Shown here: positions 29,991-61,362 of the stretch, piece by piece | Numbering within the stretch: the first letter of the stretch is position 1 | Layout of the letters: every line of letters begins with the position of its first letter | Virus record (IMG/VR): IMGVR_UViG_3300042542_006078 | Reading direction: 5' to 3' (one strand) | DNA from: a virus | Taxonomy: Duplodnaviria; Caudoviricetes | DNA: 64,000 bases | Program-made: the position numbers and the translations under genes | The notes under the pieces: model-generated | What the model was told of the DNA's origin: nothing | Databases searched by the model: none | What the model saw: only the letters and a program-made list of their open reading frames with translations

Positions 29991-30147
29991 TTGTTCAATT
30001 GATTTTTTACGCACTTGTACTCTGGGTTGTTTTTCTTGTTTTCCATGTATATGAGGTTGGGAAATGTCAAAGAAACTGCTTCGGAGACGGAAGAAGCAAA
30101 GCCGATATATGGTTGTTGGCAAGGAGTGGTGAAAAGGAGTGTGAGAG

Positions 30148-30477
30148 ATGCGATTCCAGACAGAACTTTTCAGTTTTGATGGTATGAGTCTTTACTACGA
30201 CAACAAGTTTGTCGCCAGATTCAAGTATATGAAGAGTAATATGTCAGGATTTCGTAGTTTTCTGATGAAGAACTTCGATGTTGATGAGTATTTTGCCAGA
30301 TTGGCAGATCATTGTGGTGGAAAAGGCAAAGAATCGCCTTTGGAAATTCTTGAGAGCAAGGGTTTTGTTCTCAATCACATCAAGAAATGGTTGAAGAGGG
30401 ATGGTTACCAGCCTAATTCAGAAGGATATCGTCTCTGGAGAGAATATCAGAGGCAAAAAATTGCACAAAGTCGATAA
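30148..30477 (+). CDS. Hypothetical early protein
   Basis: Downstream of promoter copy 1, AGGAG RBS. Confidence 0.7.
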   Translation: MRFQTELFSFDGMSLYYDNKFVARFKYMKSNMSGFRSFLMKNFDVDEYFARLADHCGGKGKESPLEILESKGFVLNHIKKWLKRDGYQPNSEGYRLWREYQRQKIAQSR

Positions 30478-30662
30478 ATGGAAAGAAACTGCTTCGGATT
30501 CGGAAGAAGCAAAGCCGATATATGGGTGTTCGATATTTTAACAATGATCTGAAGTAGAAAAAACTGCTTCGGATTCGGAAGAAGCAAAGCCGATATATGG
30601 GTGTGAAGACGATCACAACTTCGTGGTTGTCTTTTTTTTGGTTTTTCATGGAGGGTTTCGCA

Positions 30663-30974
30663 ATGGCTAATGTTGCTAAGAAGGTTTCTAAGAAGGTTGC
30701 CAAGGTTGGTCGTCCTAAGAAGTTTACTTCTGAACAGGTTCGTCTTTTCAAGTCTGTTGTTCGTGAGTTTGGTCTTACTGGAGCTATTCCGGTACTTCTA
30801 GAGAAGGGTCTGAGCGTTTCAGCACCGACTCTGAGCAAGTACATCTCGACTGGAGCAGGAGGTCGTCCTCCTGTTCGATTGAAGAGGGGTCGTCCTCGTA
30901 AGGTCGAGACTAATCAGGTTGTTTCTTCTGTCGAAGAAGTAAAAGTTGAAGCAACTGTTGAAGCAGTTGCCTAA
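30663..30974 (+). CDS. Small basic protein with AT-hook-like motifs
   Basis: VGRPKK and KRGRPRK; GGAGG RBS. Confidence 0.7.
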   Translation: MANVAKKVSKKVAKVGRPKKFTSEQVRLFKSVVREFGLTGAIPVLLEKGLSVSAPTLSKYISTGAGGRPPVRLKRGRPRKVETNQVVSSVEEVKVEATVEAVA

Positions 30975-31003
30975 TTTTTAACGATAACCCAAAGGAGTAT
31001 GAC

Positions 31004-31210
31004 ATGCCTAAGAAGAAACTGGTTCGTCGGGAGTTTTACATTCAGGAAACTGGTCAGGGTTACGATGTGATGGTAGTGGTTCTTGGTGTTGATGGTTATG
31101 AGTATTGTCATGGGCAATTCTTCTGCAAGAAATATGCAGAAGATATCTTGAGTGATCTCAATGAGGCCGAGACTCGTAAGCAGGAAGCTGCTTACGAACT
31201 TAACGGTTGA
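31004..31210 (+). CDS. Hypothetical early protein
   Basis: AAGGAG RBS. Confidence 0.65.
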   Translation: MPKKKLVRREFYIQETGQGYDVMVVVLGVDGYEYCHGQFFCKKYAEDILSDLNEAETRKQEAAYELNG

Positions 31211-31225
31211 TTATTTAGGATTCAA

Positions 31226-31258
31226 GGGTGGCATAGTTAACTCTATGCCACCCTTTTT
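31226..31258 (+). terminator. Hairpin GGGTGGCATAG-ttaact-CTATGCCACCC plus T-run (copy 1 of 4; others near 31857, 32987, 33319)
   Basis: 11-bp GC-rich stem followed by TTTTT. Confidence 0.75.
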
Positions 31259-31290
31259 CATGCGATTTTTTACCAAAAGGAGTGTGTGAT

Positions 31291-31545
31291 ATGAGTCGTA
31301 ACGAAATGTTTTGCAGGCTTGACGAAGCGGTTATCACCGATGACGGGGATTTCATCCCTAAAAGAACGCCAGTACGGGTTTTGTATTGGAGTACAGAAGC
31401 AGAAGGATTGATTCGGGTCGAACCTACAGCCCATATGTATTCTGACTCTTGTGATGATGAATTTCATTCATTTATTGGAACTGGACTGTTAATCGATGTC
31501 AAGCCTAGTGCCTTAACTTTTAGTTCTTGTGACAAAGGAGAATGA
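31291..31545 (+). CDS. Hypothetical protein, paralog of 31921..32184 (SH3-like beta pattern)
   Basis: NEMFCRL..DGDFIP..TPVRVLYWS. Confidence 0.7.
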   Translation: MSRNEMFCRLDEAVITDDGDFIPKRTPVRVLYWSTEAEGLIRVEPTAHMYSDSCDDEFHSFIGTGLLIDVKPSALTFSSCDKGE

Positions 31546-31546
31546 T

Positions 31547-31828
31547 ATGGCAAAGTATGAAGTGATCTTTGAAGAGATTCTGCATCATAAGGTAGAGGTG
31601 GAAGGAAATAGCCTAAAAGAGGCGAAGGAGAAAGCGTGCGAAATTGTAATGTACGGTCCTGAGACCGATTATGATACAGAAAGCTTAGGGACACAATTAA
31701 TTTCGGCTGAAGGCGAAGACGGTGAAGACGGTGAAGACGGTGAAGACGGTGAAGACGGTGAAGACGGCCAAGGTGAAGACGGCCAAGGTGAAGGCGAAGA
31801 CGGTGCCGATGAAGACGGTGCCGATTAA
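31547..31828 (+). CDS. Acidic protein with (GED)n tail
   Basis: 9-bp gaagacggt tandem repeat at ~31735-31825. Confidence 0.65.
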   Translation: MAKYEVIFEEILHHKVEVEGNSLKEAKEKACEIVMYGPETDYDTESLGTQLISAEGEDGEDGEDGEDGEDGEDGQGEDGQGEGEDGADEDGAD

Positions 31829-31920
31829 TTCAGTATTAGTAAACTAACAATTTTAAGGGTGGCATAGAGTTAACTCTATGCCACCCTTTTTCATGCGATT
31901 AACCCAAAGGAGTGTGTGAT

Positions 31921-32533: not shown

Positions 32534-32685
32534 AAAATAACCAAAAGTATTGTGTGAATGTGTAACAATTCCGAATTAGAAAAAACTTCTTCGGAATCCA
32601 GAGAAGCAAAGCCGATAGTATGGTGTGGAGACAATCACAACTTCGTGGTTGTCTTGTGTTGCAGAAGGGTAGAAGGAGTAATGAT

Positions 32686-35479: not shown

Positions 35480-35735
35480 TTTCTTTGAATCAAGGTTAAC
35501 AATAAGAGAATCCATATGGATTCTCTTATTTTATTTTCAGTTGGTTGCAGAGTACAAGTGCGTAAGTTGATTTTACGCACTTGTACTTTGTCTTCATCGT
35601 GATTTTTTGAAACTGCTTCGGATTGGCAAGAAGCAAAGCCGATATATGGGTGCAACCAATCATGTTGATCACTAATTCTTGAAACTGCTTCGGATTGGGA
35701 AGAAGCAAAGCCGATATATGGTTGAGGAGAATTCA

Positions 35736-37190: not shown

Positions 37191-37480
37191 CAATTAAAAA
37201 AAAGGAAAAGGATTGGCCTAAAAGTGAAAAAGAACTCAAACCATTTTCCGTTAAAAATTTTCATTTCTATCCTTGTGTTTTTTCTTCGAGCATAGATCAA
37301 GGTTTTGTGTATTACCTTCAAAAATTTGATTGGAAGGGAATTCTTCAGATAGAACAAAATAGCCCTAGATTCAAAAACATAGAAGAAGCATATGATTACA
37401 TTGGAATGCCTTTTGATAAAACTGTTTCGGAATCGGAAGAAGCAAAGCCGATAAAACAAAGAAGGGGGAATCGCACATGA
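37187..37480 (+). CDS. Hypothetical protein (contains promoter copy 7 in its 3' end)
   Basis: ATGA overlaps with both neighbours. Confidence 0.6.
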   Translation: MTIKKKEKDWPKSEKELKPFSVKNFHFYPCVFSSSIDQGFVYYLQKFDWKGILQIEQNSPRFKNIEEAYDYIGMPFDKTVSESEEAKPIKQRRGNRT

Positions 37481-39947: not shown

Positions 39948-40053
39948 TATATCTTGATATCAACCCATCTTTTATAAGTTTTGTTAAAACTGCTTCGGAA
40001 AGGGGAGAAGCAAAGCCGATATATGGGTGTGGTGAAAGTTTTAAGGGGGGTTG

Positions 40054-42546: not shown

Positions 42547-43194
42547 ATGTTGAACGAATCTGCATCTAAAAGTCTTACTCGTGTATTAGGCCACTTTGAA
42601 AACAATTCTTTTTCCATTGTATCAGCATCAAGAGGAATATACGGCAAGGAAGAGAATAAGATAAGAACAGAGAATCTTATATCAGATGTTAGAGGTGGTG
42701 GATTTGGTTTTGTGAAGATGAAGGGTCGTTATGTAGAAGGATATGGAACAGAAGGAGAGAAGAATCCTGTCCAAGAAGATGTTTTGTTTATTGCATCTAA
42801 GCCTATGAAGGTGAATACGGAGACAACTCCAGAAGATGAATCTAGGCACAATGATGAAGTGAATTCTAAATGGAATGAAGAGTTTAAGCAAAATATGATG
42901 AAATTGGGAAACAAGTATGATCAGGAATCAATTGTTTTCAAGCCTTATGGAGAAGAAAAGGCATATTTGATTGGAACAGTAGATATTGATGAGAATGGTA
43001 AGAAGGTTTGGCCGGGACATGGTAACATGATAGAAGTTGGTGACATTCACCCCGGCAAGGCTGGAATGTTTCATACAATGTTGTGGAAAAACAAGAGGAC
43101 ATTCACATTTGAAAGCGTAGAATATCCCAAGAGCTTCATGGGATCATGGTCTGAATTCCTCCATAGAAAAGCTATCAATGAAGGAAGGGCTTAA
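42547..43194 (+). CDS. Conserved T4-like phage hypothetical protein (DUF3293-like)
   Basis: SL.RV..H....IVSASR...N....L...R..G.G...G.Y.E...KYDQESIV pattern. Confidence 0.55.
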   Translation: MLNESASKSLTRVLGHFENNSFSIVSASRGIYGKEENKIRTENLISDVRGGGFGFVKMKGRYVEGYGTEGEKNPVQEDVLFIASKPMKVNTETTPEDESRHNDEVNSKWNEEFKQNMMKLGNKYDQESIVFKPYGEEKAYLIGTVDIDENGKKVWPGHGNMIEVGDIHPGKAGMFHTMLWKNKRTFTFESVEYPKSFMGSWSEFLHRKAINEGRA

Positions 43195-43242
43195 ACTGCT
43201 TCGGATTTCCTAGAAGCAAAGCCGATAAGGTAGTGAATCAAA

Positions 43243-48860: not shown

Positions 48861-49069
48861 AAAACCACCAGTTAGAGTACAAGTATATATGAAATGATTT
48901 TTTTGCTTTTACAAACTTGTACTTTCAGTTTACATCTTACACACTTGTACTCCAGACTTACCATCAACAAAGCAATTCTGGACAAGCAAGTCTATTGACC
49001 AAACTGCTTCGGAAAGCGAAGAAGCAAAGCCGATATTATGGTGTAACGATAACCACAAGGAGAAAGACA

Positions 49070-49372
49070 ATGGCAACTATTCGCTGCGAAGAATTGAAAT
49101 ACAAAGGGAAACTTTTTGATGTGACCTTTGGTTACGAGTTTACTGTTGATAAATGGAATGATGTCGAGATTCACAAATGTGACATCTGGTTGGAGAAAAT
49201 CGGTTTTTACGATGAAGACCAAGACAAAGTGATTGAATATAAACCAGATGATATTGAAACTAAGGAAGTGATTGAACTTTTCCCATACGACAGTGTTTAT
49301 AAAGACCTTGATCTTGAAAAAGTAGTCGAAGACTACTGGCAAGGAGTTAAAGACGGTCATGTGGGCATCTAA
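49070..49372 (+). CDS. Hypothetical early protein
   Basis: Promoter 49001, AAGGAG RBS. Confidence 0.65.
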   Translation: MATIRCEELKYKGKLFDVTFGYEFTVDKWNDVEIHKCDIWLEKIGFYDEDQDKVIEYKPDDIETKEVIELFPYDSVYKDLDLEKVVEDYWQGVKDGHVGI

Positions 49373-49388
49373 TTGCGAAAGGAATGCA

Positions 49389-49751
49389 ATGAAAATCAAA
49401 GTTCGATTCCATCTCGCCAATGGCGAAAACTACAGGAAATGGCAAGTCAAAGTTGGTTCAGAGGTCAATTACTATGATCCTGAATCAACACGAATCGTCA
49501 TGAAAGAATGCAAGCTGAGGAACAGTAAGAAAATAGCAAATCAAATCAATCAAGGCGCAAACAAAACAGTATGCGCTTGGATAGAATGCCAAGATCTGGA
49601 AATCCAAACTGTAAAAGAAGAACTATCATCATCTGCTATCACATACAACCCAAGAGTACAACCAAATTGGGTTGAAAATGGCAAAGATGTAGATAACGAA
49701 AGATATCAAGTCCTATACACAAATGGTAGAGGAGTTTATCGTCCTTCTTAA
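49389..49751 (+). CDS. Conserved phage hypothetical protein
   Basis: KVRFHLANGENYRKWQVK...KTVCAWIEC...YNPRV.P.W. Confidence 0.65.
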   Translation: MKIKVRFHLANGENYRKWQVKVGSEVNYYDPESTRIVMKECKLRNSKKIANQINQGANKTVCAWIECQDLEIQTVKEELSSSAITYNPRVQPNWVENGKDVDNERYQVLYTNGRGVYRPS

Positions 49752-49843
49752 TCTGGACAAGATTATCCCCTTTCCAAACTGCTTCGGAAAGGGGAGAAGC
49801 AAAGCCGATATATGGGTGTAACCAATCGGCAAGGAGAAAGACA

Positions 49844-49981
49844 ATGATTTTTATTCCAAAGTGTGAAATTGAGATGATGGCTCAGGTTTCGGCAGAATTA
49901 TTCAGGAATAAGTGTCAAATCAAAGTGACACTTGAGTGTAACACTCATTGGAGAATTGAAATCCTGAGTGTTGATGAGTAA
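49844..49981 (+). CDS. 45-aa small protein (not in ORF track)
   Basis: Promoter 49776, AAGGAG RBS, MIFIPKCEIE...LSVDE*. Confidence 0.55.
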   Translation: MIFIPKCEIEMMAQVSAELFRNKCQIKVTLECNTHWRIEILSVDE

Positions 49982-50019
49982 CAGTTCTAACAGTAACAGT
50001 TCTAACAAGGAGAAAGACA

Positions 50020-50412
50020 ATGGCTAAGATTACGATTGATATTGAAGACCAGCTTCCTGATCTCGTCAATGATGCGATTGATGGAGTAAAAGAAATTCTC
50101 AAAGATTATGTCGAGGAAAACAAATCAGATAGCCTTCCAGATATAAGCGATCTGGACTACTCTGGTTCAGTACATGAACTTATTGATGGACTAATCCCTG
50201 TATATGATAAAAATATTGAAGATATATGGTATCTTCACAAGAAAGATTTGATCAGATCATACGAAGATTCAGGAGTGGGTAATAACCCCATGGAAAATAA
50301 TGGATTGTCTGCCATATACTTCTACTTGAATCAGGAAGTAAACAACTGGTATGGCGACAATGCTCAAGATTACTTTGATGAAATTGCCAAAGTTGATATT
50401 GTAGAAGAATAA
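50020..50412 (+). CDS. Acidic hypothetical protein
   Basis: AAGGAG RBS; Asp/Glu-rich; followed by hairpin 50424-50453. Confidence 0.65.
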   Translation: MAKITIDIEDQLPDLVNDAIDGVKEILKDYVEENKSDSLPDISDLDYSGSVHELIDGLIPVYDKNIEDIWYLHKKDLIRSYEDSGVGNNPMENNGLSAIYFYLNQEVNNWYGDNAQDYFDEIAKVDIVEE

Positions 50413-50596
50413 AAGTTGATATAAGAGGCAAGCAGTAAAATGCTTGCCTCTTTTTTTTTGGTTTCCATTTTTTTACACACTTGTACTCTCAAGCCAAATC
50501 AATTACAGACAAGATTGTCTTTTGTCTAAACTGCTTCGGAAAGCGGAGAAGCAAAGCCGATATTATGGTGTAACGATAACCACAAGGAGAAAGACA

Positions 50597-50995
50597 ATGA
50601 CTATGCCAATCATTCCTATCGATCACCTGAGCGTTGAAGAGCGTGAAATCGCTTCTGGAATTATTGCCAATCAAGGCAAGAATAAGGGTAGGCTTAGGGC
50701 TGGAAAACCTAAGATCGAATATTCCATTTTTGAAGAGAATGGCAGGAAGTTGCGACGACCAACTGATAAGACTGGTAAGGTTGCTTATCTCTGGCGAATG
50801 GTTGCTTTTCATGTTAGCCCTACTCCACAACACCAATGTCTGCCTGTATTGGCATTCGTTGATCTTCCCGGCACATATCAAGATGGTCAAGTTCTTGCAA
50901 AAGAACTTGATCTGATCGTAAATAAAATCATCGATGCAATGCCTCGCAAGGAATGGCAAGGCATTAACAGGTGGGCCAAGGCACTTGGTTACTAA
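50597..50995 (+). CDS. Conserved phage hypothetical protein
   Basis: GRLRAGKP...AYLWRMVAF.VSP..QHQCLPV.A...W..ALG. Confidence 0.65.
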   Translation: MTMPIIPIDHLSVEEREIASGIIANQGKNKGRLRAGKPKIEYSIFEENGRKLRRPTDKTGKVAYLWRMVAFHVSPTPQHQCLPVLAFVDLPGTYQDGQVLAKELDLIVNKIIDAMPRKEWQGINRWAKALGY

Positions 50996-51004
50996 GGAGA
51001 AAAT

Positions 51005-51190
51005 ATGAAAAAGTTTTGCAAACTTTTCTTCTGCAACAAAGATCATGATCATGATATCAATCTCTGCAATCAATGCAAGGAAGCATATGCAGAGATCAAA
51101 AGAGACGAAGCTATCTTCTTTCAAATAGATAGTCCAATCTATAGAACAGATTTGGAAAAAGCAGCACTTGATTGCAATGGCCAACCATAA
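51005..51190 (+). CDS. Small Cys/His protein
   Basis: AAGGAG RBS. Confidence 0.5.
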   Translation: MKKFCKLFFCNKDHDHDINLCNQCKEAYAEIKRDEAIFFQIDSPIYRTDLEKAALDCNGQP

Positions 51191-51461
51191 GGAGAATTTA
51201 GTGAAGCACTATCCAATCGTCTTCTTGCAAGGAGATGAAGCCTACAATCTAATTGATCTTGATGAAAAAGATCGAGATCAATTCATCAATGCTATCAGGG
51301 AATATATCCCTGATGATCTGCCTGATTCTGTTAATGGTGAACCAGCAACATTGAACTATAGGATAAATTTCAGAACCACAATTGGAAGCAAGTTGTATCG
51401 GATTGGTTATACAACTGGTGATGGTGGTTGCCTTGGAATCGATCTTATTGATGATAATTAA
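51168..51461 (+). CDS. Hypothetical protein
   Basis: ORF in an operon-like run. Confidence 0.55.
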   Translation: MIAMANHKENLVKHYPIVFLQGDEAYNLIDLDEKDRDQFINAIREYIPDDLPDSVNGEPATLNYRINFRTTIGSKLYRIGYTTGDGGCLGIDLIDDN

Positions 51462-51489
51462 TTGCTATGCCCAGTTTTATAAAACAAAC

Positions 51490-51614
51490 CGTAGAGTATT
51501 CCACAAGCCTCGTAGAGTATTCCACAAGCCTCGTAGAGTATTCCACAAGCCTCGTAGAGTATTCCACAAGCCTCGCAGAGTATTCCACAAGCCTCGCAGA
51601 GTATTCCACAAGCC
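51490..51614. repeat. Tandem array CGTAGAGTATTCCACAAGCCT, 6 copies, 21-bp period
   Basis: Units start at 51490,51511,51532,51553,51574,51595. Confidence 0.95.
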
Positions 51615-51631
51615 ATTAAAAGGAGATTGAT

Positions 51632-52036
51632 ATGCAATACAACACTCATGTTCTTGCTAATGGTGCTAAATTAGTCACTCTATCACCTCACAGTTTCAAG
51701 TTTTCAGACGGAACAGAGTCTCCTCCTCAAGATAAAGATTTTTGCAACAAATTCACTCTGAAGAAAAATTTCAGTGTTGCTAGGCAAATAAAAGGAATGA
51801 ATGTTACAAAAACATTTTTCGTCGTATCTTCAGAACAATATGATTGCCTAAATGAAATTGCCAAATCAGTAGACATCATACTCGTTCCATTCCAATTCCT
51901 TCAAGCACTGCATGACACTTTTGGACCTAATGGAGCATTCGACAATGTCGTAGCCTTCAATGCTACTGTTGATACAGCAAGGTCTTCTCCTAATGAAAAG
52001 ATCGTTGATATCAACAACTGGTCTTCTATTGATTGA
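51632..52036 (+). CDS. Hypothetical protein
   Basis: AAGGAG RBS. Confidence 0.65.
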
Positions 52037-52254
52037 AATCAACAAGGAGAATTCAATTGAACAAACAAGAAAATTGCTCTTGTGGAGGAAGATTTGTCTT
52101 CACACAATATTGTGGAGCAAAAATTTGTAACAATTGCAATAATCATCTTGGATATGCAAGATGTTATTGTGGATGGAGCGAATCAGGAGGAAATGGATAC
52201 CAAGAACTAATCGATCTTGGCGAAACAATTGAACCAGAACCAGATGACTGCTAA
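52033..52254 (+). CDS. Small Cys-rich (zinc-ribbon-like) protein
   Basis: CSCGG..CG..ICNNC...CYCGW. Confidence 0.5.
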   Translation: MKSTRRIQLNKQENCSCGGRFVFTQYCGAKICNNCNNHLGYARCYCGWSESGGNGYQELIDLGETIEPEPDDC

Positions 52255-52407
52255 ATCATCTTGGATATACAAGATGCTATTGTTGATGGATAGAATCAGG
52301 GAAAAATAGATACCAAGAACTAATCGATCTTGGCGAAACAATTGAACCAGATGACTACTAATTATGTTTATAAAATCGTCACAATATGACGAAGAAAGGA
52401 TTCCTTC

Positions 52408-52584
52408 ATGAGTGAATTTGATGCAGTGATGATTGCAGAAGGAGTTCAAGAAGAAGAAGAACATGTAGTTATCGAAGCATGGCAAAAGTTGATTGATACA
52501 GGTCTTGCATGGAAGCTTCAAGGAATCTTTGGAAGAACAGCGCAAATACTGATTGATGCAGGAATCTGTAATGCATGCCAATGA
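52408..52584 (+). CDS. Conserved 58-aa phage protein (not in ORF track)
   Basis: AWQKLIDTGLAWKLQGIFGRTAQILIDAGIC. Confidence 0.65.
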   Translation: MSEFDAVMIAEGVQEEEEHVVIEAWQKLIDTGLAWKLQGIFGRTAQILIDAGICNACQ

Positions 52585-53047
52585 TTCATTAACCAATCCA
52601 TTAAACAATAAGGAGTATTGCCACATGAGTGAAGAACTTAATGTCAAGTATGATGATATCGAAATGGCAATAGAACCAGATGAAGTATTAGACTGGAATG
52701 AGGATAAGATAAAATGGCGATATGATATGGCAGATTGATATAATAACCCTGATTCTAACCACAAAAGGTTAGAATCAGGGTTCTTTTTTTTTAATCTTAA
52801 ATTACAAAATTGTTCATCATAATTGATAAATTGTCACCAATAGTATCAGGATAAAACAAATCCTGATACTATTTTTTTATTGCCCACAACAAATAGTACA
52901 AGTGTGTAAAATCCTTTTACGCACTTGTACTCTGAGCCTCGCTTCAGAATTACAGACAACAATGTCGCCTTTCCAAACTGCTTCGGAAAGCTGAGAAGCA
53001 AAGCCGATATATGGGTGTAACGATAACCAACACCAAGGAGACGAAAG

Positions 53048-53326
53048 ATGAGCAACACCAACACCAACACCAACACCACCATCAACACCATCATCGATGC
53101 AGCAATTTCATTGGATCTTCATCACATATACCGTGATAACAATCATTATAGCATTGAAGTGAATGGTATAGAAGTATGCTATGCCTCAATGGAAAGTGAT
53201 ATCAGATATGCATATCTGAAATTAAAGCCTCTGATCCCACAGGAGATGGATGTTAAGTTCTTTTTCCTAATTCCTAGTGAGACACCATCGATTTATCTTC
53301 ATGATAAGACACAGATTGAGCTTTAA
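53048..53326 (+). CDS. Hypothetical early protein (single-gene cassette)
   Basis: Promoter 52975, AAGGAG RBS, terminator 53334-53362. Confidence 0.7.
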   Translation: MSNTNTNTNTTINTIIDAAISLDLHHIYRDNNHYSIEVNGIEVCYASMESDIRYAYLKLKPLIPQEMDVKFFFLIPSETPSIYLHDKTQIEL

Positions 53327-53505
53327 CCAAAATAAAAAAGAGCCTTCTGGCTCTTTTTTTATTTGTCATTCCTTTTACACACTTGTACTCTGAGCCTCGC
53401 TTCAGAATTACAGACAAGAATGTCGCCTTTCCAAACTGCTTCGGAAAGCCGAGAAGCAAAGCCGATATATGGGTGTAACCAACAACAACACCAAGGAGAC
53501 GAAAG

Positions 53506-53823
53506 ATGAATGCTAACATCACGGTTTTTGGCGAAAGCTACAAAGTAACGATAAAGGAGTCCCGTTACAACAATAATGGGAATATTGCTTTGGTTGCTTA
53601 CAACCAAGAGGATAATTCCCTGTTTGGTAAAATAACGGCTAACATCGAGGAAACAATCAAGAAAGGATACATCCTCGTAAAAACATATGGGGAAAATGAG
53701 GAATGGGTTCCTCAAATTCTGGCTCAATTGCCAAACAATTTCCGCAGCACAGGTCAAACCCTGTCTGTGGGATTCACAGAATTAGAAATCTGGGAATACT
53801 TCCCAGAGTCGATCAACAATTAG
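53506..53823 (+). CDS. Hypothetical early protein (DUF4313-like)
   Basis: Y.NNGNIAL...FGKITANI...VKTYGENE; promoter 53433. Confidence 0.65.
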   Translation: MNANITVFGESYKVTIKESRYNNNGNIALVAYNQEDNSLFGKITANIEETIKKGYILVKTYGENEEWVPQILAQLPNNFRSTGQTLSVGFTELEIWEYFPESINN

Positions 53824-53860
53824 TTTTCAACCTCAACAACCAACAATCAAAAGGAGAAAT

Positions 53861-54187
53861 ATGATGCGTGATTTTTACGATTGGGACACAACACCGTATG
53901 AAGTAGAAGGACAGATGTTGGGATCGAATTACGATCCTATCAAGGCAAGAGAGGAGGCAAGGGAAACAATAAAGATTCTCTGCCGAAAGTTCGGGGTTCC
54001 ACCTGCTGGTAGTCTCCTGAAGGTTCATAGCAACCCTCATGATTTTGGAAACTACTACAGCATCCGGTTTATTTTCAATGATGCAGATGATGATCACATT
54101 GAATACCTTAACAGGGTAGAAAACAATTGGCCAAAAGATTGGGATGATTCTGAATTTGTGGCAGCAGAACAACCTGCTTCCAAATGA
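53861..54187 (+). CDS. Conserved phage hypothetical protein
   Basis: TTPYEVEG.MLG....NPHDFGNYYSI. Confidence 0.65.
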   Translation: MMRDFYDWDTTPYEVEGQMLGSNYDPIKAREEARETIKILCRKFGVPPAGSLLKVHSNPHDFGNYYSIRFIFNDADDDHIEYLNRVENNWPKDWDDSEFVAAEQPASK

Positions 54188-54190
54188 ACA

Positions 54191-54300
54191 TCGAATACTC
54201 TACAAGCAAGTAGAATACTCTACAAGCAAGTAGAGTATTCTACAAGACATAGAGTATTCTACAAGACATAGAGTATTCTACACGGTGTATAATACTCTAT
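54191..54300. repeat. TAGAGTATTCTA/TAGAATACTCTA array, 5-6 copies, 19-20-bp period
   Basis: Cores at ~54193,54211,54231,54250,54269. Confidence 0.9.
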
Positions 54301-54324
54301 AGGTTGATATACGGAGTTCATAAT

Positions 54325-54738
54325 ATGAATGATGCGATTATTGTGGCCCTTCTTAAAAGCCTGAAATCACCTGAACTCAAACCCGGTCAATATCAGGTTG
54401 ATGAGGTCGTCACCCTTCACATTAAGGGTAACATCACAAAAGATAATGAGGAACTTTACACTCCAACAGTGCAAGTTCCTCAGAAGCTCCTAATGGCCTG
54501 TCTCCTAGAAAGACTAGGTGCCATTCGTGAATGCACAATTGATCTTATCACTAAAGCCATGAGTGATGCCATCAGACTCAATGAGTCTGGATCGACTCAC
54601 CTTGGCCACTTCTTGAAAGACTACGATGATGCCATGGAGCGTGTCCAAGATGTGCTTGGAAACCTTCCAAAGAAAACAAGAACTGGCAAAACCAAGGTCA
54701 AAGCAACAGTAACAGAAGTCAAAACAGTAAAAGTATAA
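54325..54738 (+). CDS. Hypothetical protein
   Basis: GGAG RBS. Confidence 0.65.
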   Translation: MNDAIIVALLKSLKSPELKPGQYQVDEVVTLHIKGNITKDNEELYTPTVQVPQKLLMACLLERLGAIRECTIDLITKAMSDAIRLNESGSTHLGHFLKDYDDAMERVQDVLGNLPKKTRTGKTKVKATVTEVKTVKV

Positions 54739-54765
54739 TATGTGATCAGAATACAAATAATGATA

Positions 54766-54842
54766 TAGAGTATTCCCCAAGCAAATAGAGTATTCTACAA
54801 GCACATAGAATACTCTACAAGCATATAGAATACTCTACAAGC
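54766..54842. repeat. Quasi-palindrome array, 4 copies, 20-bp period
   Basis: Cores at 54766,54786,54806,54826. Confidence 0.9.
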
Positions 54843-55250
54843 ATATATGGTATTGCACGATATAGAATTATACTTATATAAAAGAAGGGTCATCCACAAT
54901 AAATGGATGACCCTTCTTTTTTTTATGCCCATATTGTCACAAACCACAATTAAAATGGAGTTCCTATCATGGATGGCAACATTTTTGATTCCGATGCATT
55001 GGATGGTATGCTCAAAATAAACATCGTAATCGGCCAAAATCAATTGCCAGTAAGCAAACCACAAGAAGATGAAATACTATTTTGCTCATCCAAAATCATC
55101 AAGGAAACATATAGCCGTTGGCTAATGTCTGCTTCTTAATTCCTACAATTATAGACAAGAATGTCCTCTTTCCAAACTGCTTCGGAAAGGGGAGAAGCAA
55201 AGCCGATATTATGATGTGGCGACAATGATTCTTTTCATGAGGGTTTTCAA

Positions 55251-55496
55251 ATGGCTAGTCTTACAAAGTCAAAAGAGGAAGTCCAGAAGCAAGTCGAGGA
55301 ATTCAACAAGGCGGTTTACAACCGTCTTGACGCTTGGGTTCCTGCATGCGGAGGAACAGAAGTTCCGTTCCGTTCAAGGAGCGGAGCAACTCTACTCTAC
55401 TGCTTCAACCCTCGCCTTGGCAAACATGCCTACATCAATCTAGAAACAGACATGATCCTAGAAGATGAAGAGGCCTTCGCTCACCTCAACAAATAA
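55251..55496 (+). CDS. Conserved phage hypothetical protein
   Basis: WVPACGGTEVPF..RSG..LLYC.NP...H.YI...D.IL...EA; promoter 55174; terminator 55506-55540. Confidence 0.7.
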   Translation: MASLTKSKEEVQKQVEEFNKAVYNRLDAWVPACGGTEVPFRSRSGATLLYCFNPRLGKHAYINLETDMILEDEEAFAHLNK

Positions 55497-55745
55497 GCCA
55501 ATTCAGATGGGAGCGACACATGCTCCCATCTGAATTTTTTTATGTATTTAATATGAGAGTACAAGTGTGTAAAAACTCTTTACATACTTGTACTCTGAGC
55601 TTCGCTGTCGCCTCGAAGAGGCCAATTACAGACAAGATTGTCTGTTGTCCAAACTGCTTCGGAAAGCCGAGAAGCAAAGCCGATATATGGGTGTAACGAA
55701 ACCAATGGTCGCCCCTCACACGCACGGGGCACGGAGGCATCACTC

Positions 55746-56054
55746 ATGGCCGCTAATAATTACTCGGATCAGGGCATCGCTTGGGTCGAGAATTCCCTTG
55801 AGGGCATCGCCCAAAGGGACAAGATTACCCTGAGATCCATCTGGGGTCAGACGGAACTCCGTCTTTCCGGCACGGAGTACGCCATAGGGGAACTCCGTGC
55901 CAAGCTGCATAAGCTTGAGGAGGATCACCGCCTCTTTTCCGCTCGCAAGGAGGCGATATTTAAGGCGTATTTCCTTCTTCGCAAGGAGGAAAATCCGTCT
56001 ATAGACGAGGATGACACCTTGTGTGAAATCAAGGATGACATTGAAATAGATTGA
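55746..56054 (+). CDS. Hypothetical early protein
   Basis: Promoter 55651, GGAGG RBS, terminator 56065-56095. Confidence 0.65.
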   Translation: MAANNYSDQGIAWVENSLEGIAQRDKITLRSIWGQTELRLSGTEYAIGELRAKLHKLEEDHRLFSARKEAIFKAYFLLRKEENPSIDEDDTLCEIKDDIEID

Positions 56055-56301
56055 CGAGTCTCTAGGAGTAGGATACAATCCTACTCCTTTTTTTTCAAAA
56101 GCGAAGCTCAGAGTACAAGTTTACAAAAAATTTTTACACACTTGTACTATCAGTAATTCCAAATTCACCTTTACGCACTTGTACTCTGAGCCTCGCTCCA
56201 GAATTACAGACATCAATGTCCCCTTTCCAAACTGCTTCGGAAAGGGGAGAAGCAAAGCCGATATATGGGTGTAACCAACAACAACACCAAGGAGACGAAA
56301 G

Positions 56302-56523
56302 ATGAGCGAATCATGCGTAATCAAGGGCGAAGAAAATACTCGCCGCTACCAACTGGTAGTGCTTGTAAAAGCACTCCAGATACATGTGTTGACTGGAGGC
56401 CAAATGCGCCTCACAAGGGCCGATTACATCGGCCTAGCAAGGAATCTAGGCTATAAGGGACGAACTGCAAAGTCCCTTCTTGCCGACATAATAAGCAAGA
56501 ACCCTGACTTGAACAGGGCGTAA
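56302..56523 (+). CDS. Hypothetical early protein
   Basis: Promoter 56229, AAGGAG RBS. Confidence 0.65.
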   Translation: MSESCVIKGEENTRRYQLVVLVKALQIHVLTGGQMRLTRADYIGLARNLGYKGRTAKSLLADIISKNPDLNRA

Positions 56524-56621
56524 TACAGACATCAATGTCCCCTTTCCAAACTGCTTCGGAAAGGGGAGAAGTAAAGCCGATATATGGGTGTGGCGAAAAT
56601 GATTCTTCAGGAGTGCGAGAG

Positions 56622-56858
56622 ATGAAGAGAAGGAAGTATGCTTTTGTTTCTCTAGTCGAAACCCCTAACAGGGGGGTCGAAGTTTCCTATCACTTCCGCA
56701 GCGATCTGCGTGAGGTGATGGAAGGACTCGGCTACCGTGAGGGTAGCTATGAGGTCCATCCTGAAGGGCTGGCTTCCAAGCCCTCACCTTGGAAGCCAGC
56801 CAAGGTGCCTGTAAACAGGTTACTAGGCGTATCCAAGCTTGTAGCCGAGCTTGGATGA
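56622..56858 (+). CDS. Hypothetical early protein
   Basis: Promoter 56548, AGGAG RBS, terminator 56867-56905. Confidence 0.6.
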   Translation: MKRRKYAFVSLVETPNRGVEVSYHFRSDLREVMEGLGYREGSYEVHPEGLASKPSPWKPAKVPVNRLLGVSKLVAELG

Positions 56859-57044
56859 TATTGTGGAGCATGAAGGGTAATTAAACCCTTCATGCTCTTT
56901 TTTATTTGCCATTCCTTTTACGCACTTGTACTCTCAGTCCCGACAATAAAGGACAAGATTGTCTGTTGTCCAAACTCCTTCGGAAAGCCGAGAAGTAAAG
57001 CCGATATATGGGTGTAACGAAACCAACAACAAGGAGAATGAAAG

Positions 57045-57146
57045 ATGATCAGCTTGATAATTTTGGGTGCTATTGGAATATATTGTGCGAGAAAAATGCT
57101 AGCAGAAAAGTGGGAGAATAGCACCACCAGCTACGAGCGATACTGA
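57045..57146 (+). CDS. 33-aa single-TM peptide (not in ORF track)
   Basis: Promoter 56972, AAGGAG RBS; MISLIILGAIGIYCARK... Confidence 0.5.
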   Translation: MISLIILGAIGIYCARKMLAEKWENSTTSYERY

Positions 57147-57245
57147 CAATTACAGACAAGTTTATCCCCTTTCCAAACTTCTTCGGAAAGGGGAGAAGCA
57201 AAGCCGATATATGGGTGTAACCAACAACAACACGGAGACTAGACA

Positions 57246-57716
57246 ATGAGCGTTGCTCAATTTTTTGCGACAAAAGGTCAGTTCATCAAGGTTTCTTTCC
57301 AGACAGAAAAAAAGCCTTCTTCTGCCCACAAGGGCACGATTCTTCGCAAAGAAACAACCGGAGTCTTCAGGGCTGGCATTAACTTTGCCAACCTCAAATC
57401 GGTGCGGGAAGGCATCGAAAATAACGAGAGAGGCGAGGTTCAGCCCTTGCCTTGGGGCAGGTGGGTCAGGTTCCCCTACCTGATCGAACACAATGGCGCA
57501 AATTATCTGCGCCTGTACCCTGCCGTAAACGGCAAGGTTACTGTTAAGTACCTTGTCAACGGGCAGGCCGTTGACAAAGCTGTTTTCAACAGCTACCTCA
57601 CTCCAAGTGAGGCCAACAGGACAGATCCTGTTGAATGCTTCACTGTAAAGGCTGACAACATCGTCAGCATTGGCAGTGAAGCAGTAGAGACTGTTGAGGC
57701 TGCTGAAGCAGCCTAA
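57246..57716 (+). CDS. Conserved phage hypothetical protein
   Basis: KGQF...RAGINFANL...PWG.WV.FPYLIEHNG.NYLRLYP; promoter 57175. Confidence 0.75.
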   Translation: MSVAQFFATKGQFIKVSFQTEKKPSSAHKGTILRKETTGVFRAGINFANLKSVREGIENNERGEVQPLPWGRWVRFPYLIEHNGANYLRLYPAVNGKVTVKYLVNGQAVDKAVFNSYLTPSEANRTDPVECFTVKADNIVSIGSEAVETVEAAEAA

Positions 57717-57836
57717 CAAATAAGGATGCAACAACAACCAAAAGGAGAGAGAAATGATTTTCCAATTATGTGAGTTGCTTGGTATTGCAGACTTAGTGTG
57801 GGCAATCCTCAATCAATTTTGGGGAGGATTCTAAAG

Positions 57837-57925
57837 TAGAGTATTCTACAAGACATGGAATACTCTACAAGCAAGTAGAGTATTCTACAAGCAAGTAGAG
57901 TATTCTACAAGCAAGTAGAGTATTC
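57837..57925. repeat. Quasi-palindrome array, 5 copies, 19-20-bp period
   Basis: Cores at 57837,57856,57876,57896,57916. Confidence 0.9.
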
Positions 57926-58015
57926 GATGATCTGGACACCATTCCATCTGGTTGAGATGTGTGAAAATATATGTCTTCAATCTTGATTTTTTACTATAAC
58001 CCAATGGAGATGAAG

Positions 58016-58276
58016 ATGGCCATATATGTCACGATGACTGATAAGTTCATGAGTGGATGGGGTCAGGCTGAAGGCCTCATCAATAAGTATGTTATAGAGT
58101 GCGAGTCTCAACAGCAGGCTCAAATCTGCGCTAAAAACGCTCGCTTAAGAAGCGAGATGAAATATGTCAACATCGTTTCAAAGAAGCCTTACTACAATCA
58201 AGAAAGGTATCTGGTTTCACTTAAAAAGTTTTCTGAACTAGGTTCTATCTGGACACAAGATCCAGATGCAAAATAA
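58016..58276 (+). CDS. Conserved phage hypothetical protein
   Basis: YVTMTDKFMSGWGQAEG.INK.VIEC...R.EMKYV. Confidence 0.7.
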   Translation: MAIYVTMTDKFMSGWGQAEGLINKYVIECESQQQAQICAKNARLRSEMKYVNIVSKKPYYNQERYLVSLKKFSELGSIWTQDPDAK

Positions 58277-58278
58277 CC

Positions 58279-58315
58279 GTAGAGTATTCTACAAGCAAGT
58301 AGAGTATTCTACAAG
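58279..58315. repeat. Quasi-palindrome pair, 20-bp period
   Basis: Cores at 58280,58300. Confidence 0.85.
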
Positions 58316-58426
58316 AATCATTTATATCAAATTATAATACATGATGGCATCACAATATGCCATCATGTATGTTTTTTTTATTTCTATTTCTTTTATACAC
58401 AATTTCTTGACCACAAAGGAGTCAAC

Positions 58427-58639
58427 ATGTTTTGTGTAATGGCTAAAAGCAAAAAACTATTCTGTGCTTCGGTTGATATGCTCGGAAAAATAAAAAAGGT
58501 AATATCATCATTAAATGATAATGATGATGATATAGTTTTTTATATTGAGAATTGCGAAGAAAAAGAAATGTCAGTATCAGTGATCGATTCTTTTAAGAAA
58601 GCTTTGGAAATTATAGAAAGTGCATATGTTTTTGCTTGA
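58427..58639 (+). CDS. Hypothetical protein
   Basis: AAGGAG RBS. Confidence 0.55.
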   Translation: MFCVMAKSKKLFCASVDMLGKIKKVISSLNDNDDDIVFYIENCEEKEMSVSVIDSFKKALEIIESAYVFA

Positions 58640-58650
58640 TATATGATAAT

Positions 58651-58740
58651 ATGAAACTATGCATATCAACATCTGCATATGAAACTCTGCATATGAAACT
58701 CTGCATATCAACTTATGCATATCAACTTATACATATCAAC
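58651..58740. repeat. 14-bp tandem repeat (AT[GC]AA[AC]..[AC]T[GA]CAT), 6 copies
   Basis: Units at 58651,58665,58679,58693,58707,58721. Confidence 0.85.
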
Positions 58741-58840
58741 CTCGTAATACAGACAAGTTTCTCCTCTTTCCAAACTGCTTCGGAAAGGGGAGAAGCAAAG
58801 CCGATATATGGGTGTAACGATAACCACAAGGAGAATGATC

Positions 58841-59152
58841 ATGGCAAATTTTGTCAATTTGACACCTCATGCGATCAACCTCAACGATGGGCGGGTTTTC
58901 CCCCCATCTGGGGTTGTGGCTCGTGTTTCGTCGTCACATTCACCATTCGATGGTGATGGTGTGGCAACACTCACCTTCGGTGATGTTGTAGGCCTTCCCG
59001 TCCAGCAGGACGGTGTTTTGCTTATTACATCGGCCTTGGTGGCTCAAGCTGCCAAGAGGCAGGATGTGGTTTCCCCAGCCACGGGTCACCATGACTGTGT
59101 CCGTAACGACAAAGGGCATATTGTTTCAGTGCCCGGATTCGTCCGTGGTTAA
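58841..59152 (+). CDS. Conserved NLTPH-motif protein
   Basis: FVNLTPHAI...FPPSG.VARV...TFG.V.GLP...S.LVAQA..R.DV..P. Confidence 0.7.
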   Translation: MANFVNLTPHAINLNDGRVFPPSGVVARVSSSHSPFDGDGVATLTFGDVVGLPVQQDGVLLITSALVAQAAKRQDVVSPATGHHDCVRNDKGHIVSVPGFVRG

Positions 59153-59337
59153 TTAACAAAAAATAAGAGAGACTAAATGTCTCTCTTATTTTTTTATTTG
59201 TCATTGCTTTTACGCACTTGTACTCTCAGTCCCGACAATTATAGACAAGCAGGTCTGTTGTCCAAACTGCTTCGGAATTCCGAGAAGCAAAGCCGATAGT
59301 ATGGTGTAACCAATAACAACACCACGGAGACTGAAAG

Positions 59338-59547
59338 ATGAACAGCTATAATATCACTGTCAAGATGCGGGATTTCAGCGGCTTCGTAATCGGGGCCAAA
59401 ATAAAATGTGACGGCGATCACATGTACCACGCTGACGAGCGTGGACAGATCCTATCTGTGCCTCCCGATAAGAAAATGGTTTATACCATCTTGTGGCAGG
59501 ATGGAACCGTGGATAGAATCCACTCTGATTTTATCCAGCTAATATAA
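59338..59547 (+). CDS. Hypothetical early protein
   Basis: Promoter 59264, GGAG RBS. Confidence 0.6.
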   Translation: MNSYNITVKMRDFSGFVIGAKIKCDGDHMYHADERGQILSVPPDKKMVYTILWQDGTVDRIHSDFIQLI

Positions 59548-59553
59548 AGACAT

Positions 59554-59589
59554 GGTATGAGGTGATATCACCTCATACCTTTTTTTATT
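59554..59589 (+). terminator. Perfect 26-bp palindrome GGTATGAGGTGATATCACCTCATACC plus T-run (also at 59997-60022 and 60406-60431)
   Basis: Identical palindrome after three consecutive ORFs. Confidence 0.8.
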
Positions 59590-59774
59590 TGCCATTACTT
59601 TTACGCACTTGTACTCTGAGCTTCGCTTTGGCCTCGCTCCAGAATTACAGACAAGAATGTCTGTTGTCCAAACTGCTTCGGAAAGCCGAGAAGCAAAGCC
59701 GATATATGGGTGTGGTGACAAGGAAACAATCGAGGCCATCGCCTCAGACTTGTCTCACAATTGAGGATTCGACC

Positions 59775-59990
59775 ATGAACATGAACATTGCGACCATCAA
59801 AGACATCAATGACATCTATAAGATGAAAAAGGTGGTGCGCCGCCAAAAAGAGGCGGTGGTGCAGGAAAAAGGATTGGCCACCTTCTACGGGGCACCTTGC
59901 CCCGAGTATATCACATTGAAGGAAAAATCTCTAGAAGATATAGAAAGGAAGCTCAACGATATGTTGAGCAACATGGATATGGCAGACTGA
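59775..59990 (+). CDS. Hypothetical early protein
   Basis: Promoter 59670, GAGG RBS. Confidence 0.6.
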   Translation: MNMNIATIKDINDIYKMKKVVRRQKEAVVQEKGLATFYGAPCPEYITLKEKSLEDIERKLNDMLSNMDMAD

Positions 59991-60168
59991 TGGTAAGGTA
60001 TGAGGTGATATCACCTCATACCTTTTTTTATTTGTCATTGCTTTTACGCACTTGTACTCTCAGTCCCGACAATTAAAGACAAGATTGTCTGTTGTCCAAA
60101 CTGCTTCGGAAAGCCGAGAAGCAAAGCCGATATATGGGTGTAACGAAACCACAACAAGGAGAATGATC

Positions 60169-60399
60169 ATGGCTAACCTCAACAACCTGATTCGTATGGG
60201 GGCCGACAAGGCAATAGTTGCGGCTGTGATGGCCAAAGAATCCCGCTGTATTGCTGGAGCAGTAAAGGGTTCACCCGTCAGGGTGATACTAAAATTTGGA
60301 CGAGCTGAGTGCCTGATGGGCACAGATGCTGGGGTACTAGAGGCCGTTAAGGCCTCTATCGGCGGACCCCGCACAGAAATCAGGCTTCTCAGAGCCTGA
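60169..60399 (+). CDS. Hypothetical early protein
   Basis: Promoter 60098, AAGGAG RBS. Confidence 0.65.
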   Translation: MANLNNLIRMGADKAIVAAVMAKESRCIAGAVKGSPVRVILKFGRAECLMGTDAGVLEAVKASIGGPRTEIRLLRA

Positions 60400-60574
60400 T
60401 GGTTAGGTATGAGGTGATATCACCTCATACCTTTTTTATTTGTCATTACTTTTACGCACTTGTACTCTCAGTCCTGACAATAAAGGACAAGATTGTCTGT
60501 TGTCCAAACTGCTTCGGAAAGCCGAGAAGCAAAGCCGATATATGGGTGTGACGATAACCACAAGGAGAAAGACA

Positions 60575-60889
60575 ATGGCTAACATGCTGCACACAACCCG
60601 GTCTCGGTTCATTGGTTCAGAGTCAAAGGCTTACGGCGACAGCGTATATTACGCTGTCCCGTTCACGGTTGATCGTGAATTGGGTGCTGGCTACATCGCT
60701 CGCAAGCGAGAAGCCTTAGACAGCCTTTACAAGAGGCTCGTCAAAGCCTACGAGAAGTATCAAAGGGCAGGGATAAAGGCCAACGGGTGCCACGCACCAG
60801 ATAACCTGCCTTATTATTACAACATAGAGATGACGAATGAAACTGAAGGGGTTTTGAAAGTAGAAATTTATCACAGTCGTGGAGACTGA
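60575..60889 (+). CDS. Hypothetical early protein
   Basis: Promoter 60506, AAGGAG RBS, terminator 60893-60920. Confidence 0.65.
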   Translation: MANMLHTTRSRFIGSESKAYGDSVYYAVPFTVDRELGAGYIARKREALDSLYKRLVKAYEKYQRAGIKANGCHAPDNLPYYYNIEMTNETEGVLKVEIYHSRGD

Positions 60890-61060
60890 TGAAAGGGGGC
60901 TTCGGCCCCCTTTTTTATTTGTCATTACTTTTACGCACTTGTACTCTCAGTCCCGACAATAAAGGACAAGATTGTCTGTTGTCCAAACTGCTTCGGAAAG
61001 GGGAGAAGCAAAGCCGATATATGGGTGTAAGATGTGTGACGATAACCAACAACAAGGAGA

Positions 61061-61249
61061 ATGATCATGGCTTACCACGATGACGGCAGATGCGACAGTT
61101 GCGAGAAGCACATCAAGCTCATTCCAGAGTGGAGCTTGAAGGAGCAGAATTCCCACATATACGGGAACGGAAAGCTTGGTTCGGCTTACTGTCCTTCCTG
61201 TGCGAAGGACTTTGTCGAGAATGAGTATCAGGATGGTGTTCGCTCTTGA
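61061..61249 (+). CDS. Small zinc-finger-like protein
   Basis: CDSC...CPSC; promoter 60985. Confidence 0.6.
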   Translation: MIMAYHDDGRCDSCEKHIKLIPEWSLKEQNSHIYGNGKLGSAYCPSCAKDFVENEYQDGVRS

Positions 61250-61362
61250 AATGACAATATAGACATCAATGTCCCCTTTCCAAACTGCTTCGGAAAGGGG
61301 AGAAGCAAAGCCGATATATGGATGTAAGATGTGTGACGATAACCAACAACAAGGAGAATGAA

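Follow-up and report, generated by a model that had tools for sequence, protein, structure and literature searches.

What reads a 35-nt element that recurs thirty times along one strand of a phage genome? The question is raised by a 64,000-nt stretch of DNA (hereafter the window) from an uncultured phage of the Caudoviricetes, IMG/VR record IMGVR_UViG_3300042542_006078; the sequencing runs that contain this phage are lake-water metagenomes. A first-pass annotation, made from the letters of the window, interpreted the element as a family of early promoters with a sigma28-type -10 box. The position, polarity and surroundings of the motif do fit a promoter, and judged from its sequence and placement it is most likely a non-random promoter family of a phage-specific class that switches on early or middle genes. 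As to the factor that reads it, a probability of roughly 0.55 can be given to host core RNA polymerase (RNAP) carrying a phage-encoded protein of the sigma70 family.

The anatomy of the motif is unusually well defined. A search of the window with the pattern AAACTGCTTCGG-N7-AGAAGCAAAGCCGATA gives 30 matches at no more than three mismatches, 21 of them exact, and all lie on the plus strand between positions 30073 and 61316; 100 dinucleotide-preserving shuffles of the window give 0 matches (chance expectation 0). The halves AAACTGCTTCGG and AGAAGCAAAGCCGATA are never found apart in the window, and 30 of its 33 GCCGATA heptamers belong to the motif. Variation across the 30 copies is confined to motif positions 6, 7, 13-19 and 25, and the N7 spacer comes in 15 versions. 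Because this spacer has diverged freely and the 28 other positions have not, their invariance reflects constraint or selection, and not merely recent copying. All copies contain a CTTC-N10-GAAG dyad, which in most of them is extended to TGCTTC/GAAGCA. In the 15 copies with unrelated flanks, the information content rises abruptly at position 1, from about 0 bits to 2, and drops after position 35-36; on the 3' side G40, T42 and G43 show partial conservation, in line with what would be the start region of a transcript. The mismatch search, the shuffles and the 15 spacer versions bear out what had been annotated at the outset, namely 30 copies of fixed length on the plus strand with a variable 7-nt spacer and a near-invariant dyad.

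The confinement of the motif to 30.0-61.3 kb, also part of that annotation, holds inside the window but not beyond it. Contig L041 is 100% identical to window positions 1-10721, so that L041 and L044 represent the DNA directly upstream of the window, and L044 carries three more copies at about -10.2, -7.25 and -7.16 kb, which brings the known total to 33. These upstream copies comprise a tandem pair before a gene for an SNF2 helicase and a single copy (L044:8798-8832) 68 nt before the ATG of the gene for P0002, a sigma factor discussed below; the genes between them and the 30-61 kb block are without the motif. No near-identical DNA for the window was found in the phage collection, and a 16-mer scan of IMG/VR recovered, apart from chance singletons (one of them on a 336-kb contig), only two contigs, which are 92-99% identical and belong to the same species.

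The placement of the copies argues for a role in transcription. All 30 are co-oriented with the plus-strand gene block, lie in gaps or at gene ends, and precede either a Shine-Dalgarno-led start or a tRNA-Lys gene. From the end of the motif to the start codon the distance is 18-112 nt, mostly 28-46 nt, and the ribosome-binding site usually follows at about 20-30 nt, nearer than the 30-70 nt first reported. At the tRNA-Lys (UUU) gene (43243..43316, plus strand), a non-coding target, the motif ends at 43227, 15 nt upstream as had been noted; a translation signal in that place makes no sense. Intrinsic terminators on the plus strand number 56 between 44 and 64 kb against 12.7 expected, and 20 between 28 and 44 kb against 9.4 expected. 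For half of the copies (15/30) a terminator ends no more than 152 nt upstream, and at the copies at 43676 and 45591 it ends 15 nt before the motif, which leaves no room for another signal. Sigma70-like sites are not enriched (46 vs 57 expected and 37 vs 46 expected), and the motif itself contains no hexamers of the TTGACA/TATAAT type at workable spacing. The copies at 35682 and 43676 have a Shine-Dalgarno sequence that starts 8 nt past the motif, so that transcription, if the motif is a promoter, would have to start within about 7 nt of the octamer GCCGATA(A/T) at its 3' end.

This octamer is the origin of the sigma28 comparison, and in this respect the first-pass annotation was right: GCCGATA is present in all 30 copies, 28 of which have A or T as the next base, and the octamer is that of the sigma28 -10 consensus GCCGATAA, with the CGA core preceded by GC (GC + CGATAA). 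The -10 consensus of SigD in Bacillus subtilis is GCCGATAT. The likeness ends there. The complete sigma28 consensus reads TAAAGTTT-N11-GCCGATAA, and single changes in its -35 element cut activity about 4- to 10-fold (PMC2859248). The phage motif lacks TAAAGTTT at the required distance of 11 nt from the octamer, and there is no TAAA box at N11 or, counted from TAAA, at N15; motif positions 10-17 consist of CGG and five variable bases, with one or two matches in eight to TAAAGTTT, and the A-tract at positions 1-3 lies about 9 nt too far upstream for a sigma28 -35 element. The sigma factor that is linked to the motif does not belong to the FliA family either. Two of the three defining features of the sigma28 class are thus lacking, and the likeness is limited to the -10 octamer. 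That a host sigma28 (FliA/SigD/WhiG) has been hijacked to read the octamer as its -10 element is consequently highly improbable, even if the octamer and the A-rich element further upstream would be in keeping with it: the -35 position, at which changes are costly (PMC2859248), is taken up by CGG and variable spacer, related phages use ACCGAGTA in place of the octamer, and early genes would be at risk if they depended on a host sigma that is expressed only under certain conditions.

The phage encodes a better candidate of its own. A search for a sigma factor, which the first-pass annotation had recommended, revealed sigma70-family genes, of which the one for P0002 stands directly behind a motif copy. 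P0002 matches TIGR02937 (sigma-70 family) over residues 93-319 with an E-value of 3.9e-11 and thus includes the sigma2 and sigma4 domains, while no FliA/WhiG model in NCBIfam hits it at E<=1. Compared with the PDB, a profile built from 44 sequences of the family finds primary SigA/RpoD factors over sigma2-sigma4 at 3e-10 to 1e-7 and FliA over sigma2 only, at 3.6e-4. The AlphaFold2 model of P0002 (pLDDT 90.8) extends from sigma1.2 to sigma4, and its nearest fold is full-length Thermus sigmaA; the N-terminal 90 residues are conserved, folded and region-1.2-like across the family. The MNFK... start of the protein was also considered as a capsid-targeting tag, a low-probability idea that the conserved and folded N-terminal 90 residues disfavour. 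The proposal of a phage-encoded sigma28/FliA-WhiG-like reader accordingly survives as regards the phage sigma and not as regards its class, since P0002 is nearest to primary sigmas and is not a group 3 (FliA/WhiG) factor. P0002 belongs to a new sigma family, of which about 190 homologues of about 320 residues are found in public metagenomes.

A jackhmmer search identified a paralogue, P0001, encoded 6 kb from P0002 on the opposite strand. Sigma70-like hexamers stand before the P0001 operon both in L044 and in a related contig, L051, and a cascade that leads from host sigma70 via P0001 and the motif to P0002 is our guess. The sigma gene (L044:8901-9893) and the SNF2 helicase gene (L044:11948-14146) are linked in two further contigs (L049:4988-8148 and L078:3408-9095), and in L049 they are adjacent. 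SNF2 ATPases such as RapA act on RNAP, and the linked sigma and SNF2 genes may form one transcription module.

Is the motif a peculiarity of this phage or a property of the sigma family? The surroundings of the sigma gene were compared in seven lineages whose orthologues are 33-41% identical to P0002, and a motif of this kind precedes the gene in six of them (L051, L055/L060, L056, L080/81, L082 and L078), at a distance of 39-110 nt from the sigma ATG. It reads AAACTG-N22-ACCGAGTA in L051 and L055/L060, AAAAAA-N22-ACCGAGTA in L082, AAAAAG-N22-GCCGAGTA in L056 and AAATTC-N22-GCCGAATA in L080/81; L078 has an A/T-rich element and then CGAT. What is common at the level of the family is an A-tract (AAACTG in three lineages) and RCCGAnnA, the latter in 5/6 lineages, 22 nt apart. 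Between these two ends the sequences of the lineages are entirely different; this applies to the CTTC/GAAG dyad, too, which is specific to the phage studied here. The first-pass annotation had placed the upstream element at CGGA; what the relatives conserve instead is the A-tract (AAACTG) at motif positions 1-6. The recognition helix of region 4.2 is well conserved across the sigma lineages, which fits a shared upstream element.

Repetition of the motif is seen in the relatives, too. L051 has its own 42-nt version three times at syntenic places, before the sigma gene and as a tandem pair further on, and this version has no match in IMG/VR; L078 repeats its own version before its SNF2 gene. In two further relatives the contigs (L047 and L057) end shortly before the sigma gene, as is usual for assemblies that run into a repeat. 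A scan of metagenome contigs with the family pattern produced 20 single matches, of which only L060 is a true relative. Overall, these comparisons identify a putative bipartite signal, A-tract plus RCCGAnnA, that travels with this sigma family.

From this we infer the following arrangement. The motif would head Shine-Dalgarno-led, terminator-bounded units of non-late genes, which comprise small open reading frame (ORF) cassettes, ubiquitin-like conjugation genes, the tRNA-Lys, the SNF2 helicase and the phage sigma gene itself. Host core RNAP with the phage sigma would recognise the A-tract/AAACTG element at motif positions 1-6, at about -42 to -37, and, 22 nt further on, a -10-like octamer RCCGAKWA at positions 29-36 (here GCCGATA and A or T), and would start transcription at the conserved G-TG, some 4-8 nt beyond the octamer. 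The reader could be P0002, which would then amplify itself in the manner of extracytoplasmic function (ECF) sigmas, or its paralogue P0001 within a sigma cascade. The centre of the motif, CTTCGG-N7-AGAAGCAAA with its TGCTTC/GAAGCA dyad, would be a lineage-specific add-on, and the dyad could most simply be explained as the site of a dimeric regulator that switches all these promoters together.

Such an arrangement has precedents in the promoters read by phage sigmas (SPO1 gp28 and gp33/34, phiEco32 gp36 and T4 gp55), which likewise combine a sigma70-family protein of the phage with a non-sigma70 consensus repeated before one class of genes; that the sigma gene itself lies behind the motif is a likeness to ECF sigmas. 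The differences are just as clear. Here the conserved ends lie about 22 nt apart, the -10 element is sigma28-like, 28 positions are invariant, a dyad is embedded in the motif and the system is known from sequence. P0002, moreover, has the architecture of a primary sigma, from sigma1.2 to sigma4, unlike the minimal gp55-like or the ECF-like factors.

It is important to point out that several observations weigh against a phage sigma as the reader. One sigma lineage, L053/L054, has no such motif. In the distant L049 (SNF2 47% identical, sigma 26%) no such motif was found in 14 kb, and the sigma gene is preceded by a sigma70-like TTGACA-N17-TATGCT site instead. The 22-nt gap exceeds the sigma28 spacing by about one helical turn and is longer than the usual span between sigma2 and sigma4, and a factor different from sigma4 may bind the upstream element. 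If the gene for the sigma has no promoter except the one that the sigma reads, something has to start the loop; P0001, a packaged copy of the protein or leaky reading by the host are guesses. Finally, the strong hairpins that can form at the copies at 43676 and 45591 (see below) are unexplained by a purely double-stranded reading of the motif.

Taken at face value, these oddities could also describe something new, a sigma/promoter pair of huge freshwater phages in which a sigma of the primary type reads a sigma28-type -10 element and a displaced A-tract, a dyad operator gates at least 33 promoters, and a paralogue or a copy delivered with the virion primes the system. In this full form the idea is doubtful; if true, no known -35 element lies as far upstream as the A-tract, which would surpass them by one helical turn.

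The dyad offers a different starting point. The two positions that vary inside the conserved blocks, 6 and 25, correspond to each other in its symmetry, as could be the case with a dimeric binder or with a stem that is loosely closed. In the first case host sigma70 might read the promoters with the help of a dimeric phage activator at TGCTTC-N10-GAAGCA, comparable to Mu Mor/C, to T4 MotA/AsiA or to spacer binding of the MerR type, and the phage sigma would merely be one of the regulated genes. The dyad is kept in all 33 copies with the symmetry at positions 6 and 25, and its centre at about -27 falls inside the over-long gap between the conserved ends; TGCTT is, moreover, the core of the T4 MotA box. 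Nevertheless, an activator of this kind is unlikely to be the main determinant, as the relatives keep both ends and their spacing without the dyad, which therefore is not the recognition element of the family, and as the motif has neither a TATAAT-like nor a TTGACA-like hexamer for sigma70 at a workable distance. In T4 middle promoters the MotA box, TGCTTtA, is centred at -30 and lies 12 +/- 1 nt upstream of the sigma70 -10 element TAnnnT. The phage motif shares with them the TGCTT core upstream of a non-consensus promoter and differs in that the box (positions 5-10) is 18-20 nt from the octamer, in that it forms an inverted pair and in that no TAnnnT is conserved. Neither an activator gene nor a protein that binds the dyad emerged from searches of early ORFs against Pfam and PHROGS, whose matches were unconvincing for most of those tested; ten early ORFs had no convincing match in Pfam. 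Neither MotA nor AsiA turned up among the genes examined.

The sheer amount of conserved sequence suggests yet another reader. With 28 invariant positions the motif holds more information than a sigma normally needs, which recalls promoters of the T7 class; the ATAT-GGG that follows the octamer resembles the TATA-GGG start of T7 promoters, and the inverted repeat recalls the hairpin promoters of N4. A phage RNAP, be it a single-subunit enzyme like those of T7 and N4 or a non-canonical multisubunit enzyme, possibly borne by the virion, is still an improbable reader. No RNAP was matched in Pfam or PHROGS by ten ORFs of the window, ten early ORFs of the window or eight ORFs of L044, and none is present in the precomputed Pfam list for the 29 kb upstream. 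The conserved span of about 43 nt, reaching to about -42, goes beyond the footprint of a T7-type enzyme, the units end in classical terminators of hairpin and T-run, and across lineages the motif co-occurs with the sigma family. N4 hairpin promoters, which are read by a giant virion RNAP, have a stem of 5-7 bp and a 3-nt loop of fixed sequence; here a stem of 5-6 bp would enclose a variable loop of 10 nt, and its register is shifted at 43676 and 45591.

To judge whether the motif could instead act as RNA, its wider context has to be considered. Between 49 and 61 kb, alignment shows the motif to be part of a conserved cassette of about 110-150 nt, and alignment, terminator counts and the counts of the box and dyad described here delimit a hyperplastic block of single-gene cassettes at 48900..61600 on the plus strand. 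The order within a cassette is an intrinsic terminator, a TTTTACGCACTTGTACTCT box, a GACA-N4-TGTC dyad, the 35-nt motif, a CA-rich leader with AAGGAG, and a small ORF. The 19-nt TTTTACGCACTTGTACTCT box occurs at 22 sites (29954, 30006, 35572 and from 48908 to 61543), some of them inverted, and many motif copies are preceded by one at a distance of 38-72 nt; three inverted pairs are found at 35551/35572, 52895/52916 and 55558/55579, and two of the boxes follow the last terminator (61517 and 61543). Together with a preceding TTGTCA the box could constitute a weak sigma70-like site. The second dyad, AGACA-N4-TGTC(T), has about 17 sites between 50505 and 61259 and, within the cassettes, precedes the motif by 20-25 nt; the 9 nt that follow it (CCCCTTTCC) are complementary to the motif spacer GGAAAGGGG in about eight copies, and this pairing is broken in one strain variant. 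CCGACA, present in some cassettes, was considered as a second -10 element and rejected; it is restricted to one subfamily and probably due to chance.

The motif could serve as a leader hairpin, involved in processing, stability or protein binding, in transcripts that start at upstream promoters such as the TTGTCA-N17-TACTCT of the box region, the conserved cassette sequence upstream of the motif having room for a weak sigma70-like promoter of this sort. A 6-bp hairpin is always possible, and about eight copies offer the pairing of CCCCTTTCC with the spacer. In the generic motif the RNA hairpin is weak, at about -7 kcal/mol with z from -0.1 to -2, and at the pairs 6-25 and 7-24 five of six variant cells break the pair and do not compensate it, just as the strain variant breaks the pairing of flank and spacer. 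Strong hairpins are seen in the two most divergent copies, 43676 and 45591 (z -3.5 and -4.8, respectively), in shifted registers and with G-U pairs. The strongest conservation (AAACT and AAAGCCGATA) lies outside any stem, the 15 copies with unrelated flanks share only the motif, two copies follow a terminator by 15 nt, and one precedes a tRNA; in Rfam only this tRNA was matched and not the motif. A function as RNA is highly improbable, and the preferred explanation remains that of DNA read by a phage sigma on host core RNAP.

The cassette block has a counterpart in the promoter-early stem-loop (PeSL) cassettes of the T4-type phages RB49 and phi1, the promoters of which are strong and of the sigma70 type (PMC2839356). 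As in those phages, repeats of promoter and stem-loop terminator surround small ORFs in a hyperplastic region, and cassette recombination reshuffles genes between strains: strains L032 and L037 are without 60550-61251, with a junction inside the repeated promoter region and a 75-nt overlap, N7 spacers have been exchanged between neighbouring copies, and strains differ by whole cassettes. Unlike in PeSL cassettes, the promoter here would be phage-specific and is not sigma70-like, and the cassette has two extra conserved modules, the TTTTACGCACTTGTACTCT box and the GACA-N4-TGTC dyad.

The individual copies, all on the plus strand, can be followed along the window. The first of the block, at 30073..30107, is followed by an ATG at 30148, 40 nt downstream. 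The copies at 30486..30520 and 30561..30595 form a tandem pair 75 nt apart, the second with an ATG at 30663, and the copy at 32583..32617, in which G6 is changed to T, has its ATG at 32686. About 10 nt after two of these copies the same GC-poor hairpin occurs in the leader (30605-30634 and 32627-32660); that at 30605-30634 has nine consecutive T behind it, scores as a terminator and could be a leader attenuator. A second tandem pair starts at 35610..35644, 80 nt from the end of the terminator upstream, and continues at 35682..35716, where the ATG at 35736 is only 19 nt downstream and the Shine-Dalgarno sequence is the one that starts 8 nt after the motif.

Two copies would serve a ubiquitin-like conjugation module at 37477-41073, which encodes a 482-aa protein, a JAB peptidase, a ThiF/E1-like protein and a small protein: the copy at 37419..37453 (C7 to T) stands before its first gene, that of the 482-aa protein, with an ATG at 37477, and the copy at 39987..40021 before the ThiF/E1-like gene, which starts at 40051. 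The copy that leads to tRNA-Lys occupies 43193..43227. Next are the two copies with a terminator 15 nt upstream, 43676..43710 (T6, T25; ATG 43729, 18 nt downstream) and 45591..45625 (C6, T25; ATG 45656), and then 47691..47725 (ATG 47771).

Within the hyperplastic block the copies and their start codons are 49001..49035 (ATG 49070), 49776..49810 (ATG 49844) and 50528..50562 (ATG 50597, with a terminator 76 nt upstream), followed by the single-gene cassettes at 52975..53009 (ATG 53048), 53433..53467 (ATG 53506), 55174..55208 (ATG 55251), 55651..55685 (ATG 55746), 56229..56263 (ATG 56302) and 56548..56582 (T25; ATG 56622). The copy at 56972..57006 (C6, T25) precedes a hydrophobic ORF of 33 aa, and those at 57175..57209 (T6) and 58772..58806 have their ATG at 57246 and 58835. 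Cassettes resume at 59264..59298 (ATG 59338), 59670..59704 (ATG 59775), 60098..60132 (ATG 60163), 60506..60540 (ATG 60575), which adjoins the strain deletion at 60550-61251, and 60985..61019 (ATG 61061). The last copy, 61282..61316, precedes a hydrophobic ORF of 29 aa and a terminator at 61460-61496. The two very short hydrophobic ORFs (57045-57146 and 61363-61452) possibly encode membrane peptides.

Outside the motif block and on the minus strand, most genes have CTAAATA placed 4-5 nt upstream of a start codon without a Shine-Dalgarno sequence; examples are the start codons at 10065, 11835, 14591, 16160, 25414, 62189 and 63398. By analogy, these sites suggest T4-late-like promoters that would give rise to leaderless mRNAs. 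The minus- and plus-strand gene blocks are separated by a 1.6-kb non-coding switch region (28470-30070), which is strongly strand-asymmetric, A/C-rich up to about 29300 and G/T-rich thereafter, and crowded with short repeats, CACAATT for example; a role as origin, genome end or entry region is conceivable. Elsewhere in the window, the product of 2740-3825 has a precomputed Pfam match to an AcrVA2-like family (PF26125), a tandem array of five paralogous genes (about 248 aa each) occupies 13818-17665, and two paralogous minus-strand genes (359 and 367 aa) at 17721-20061 have upstream regions that differ by one base over 70 nt.

For an uncultured phage, the motif amounts to a specific regulatory code that lends itself to testing; the genome appears to have three promoter classes: host-like, motif-borne and T4-late-like. 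The motif class marks takeover and accessory genes, among them the ubiquitin-like conjugation module and dozens of ORFan cassettes. PeSL-style shuffling of cassettes would then not be tied to sigma70 promoters. For the sigma family, with its approximately 190 members, the motif is a candidate promoter that could supply orthogonal sigma/promoter parts, and its geometry and lineage-specific dyad pose the question of how sigma domains, or their helpers, span 22 nt.

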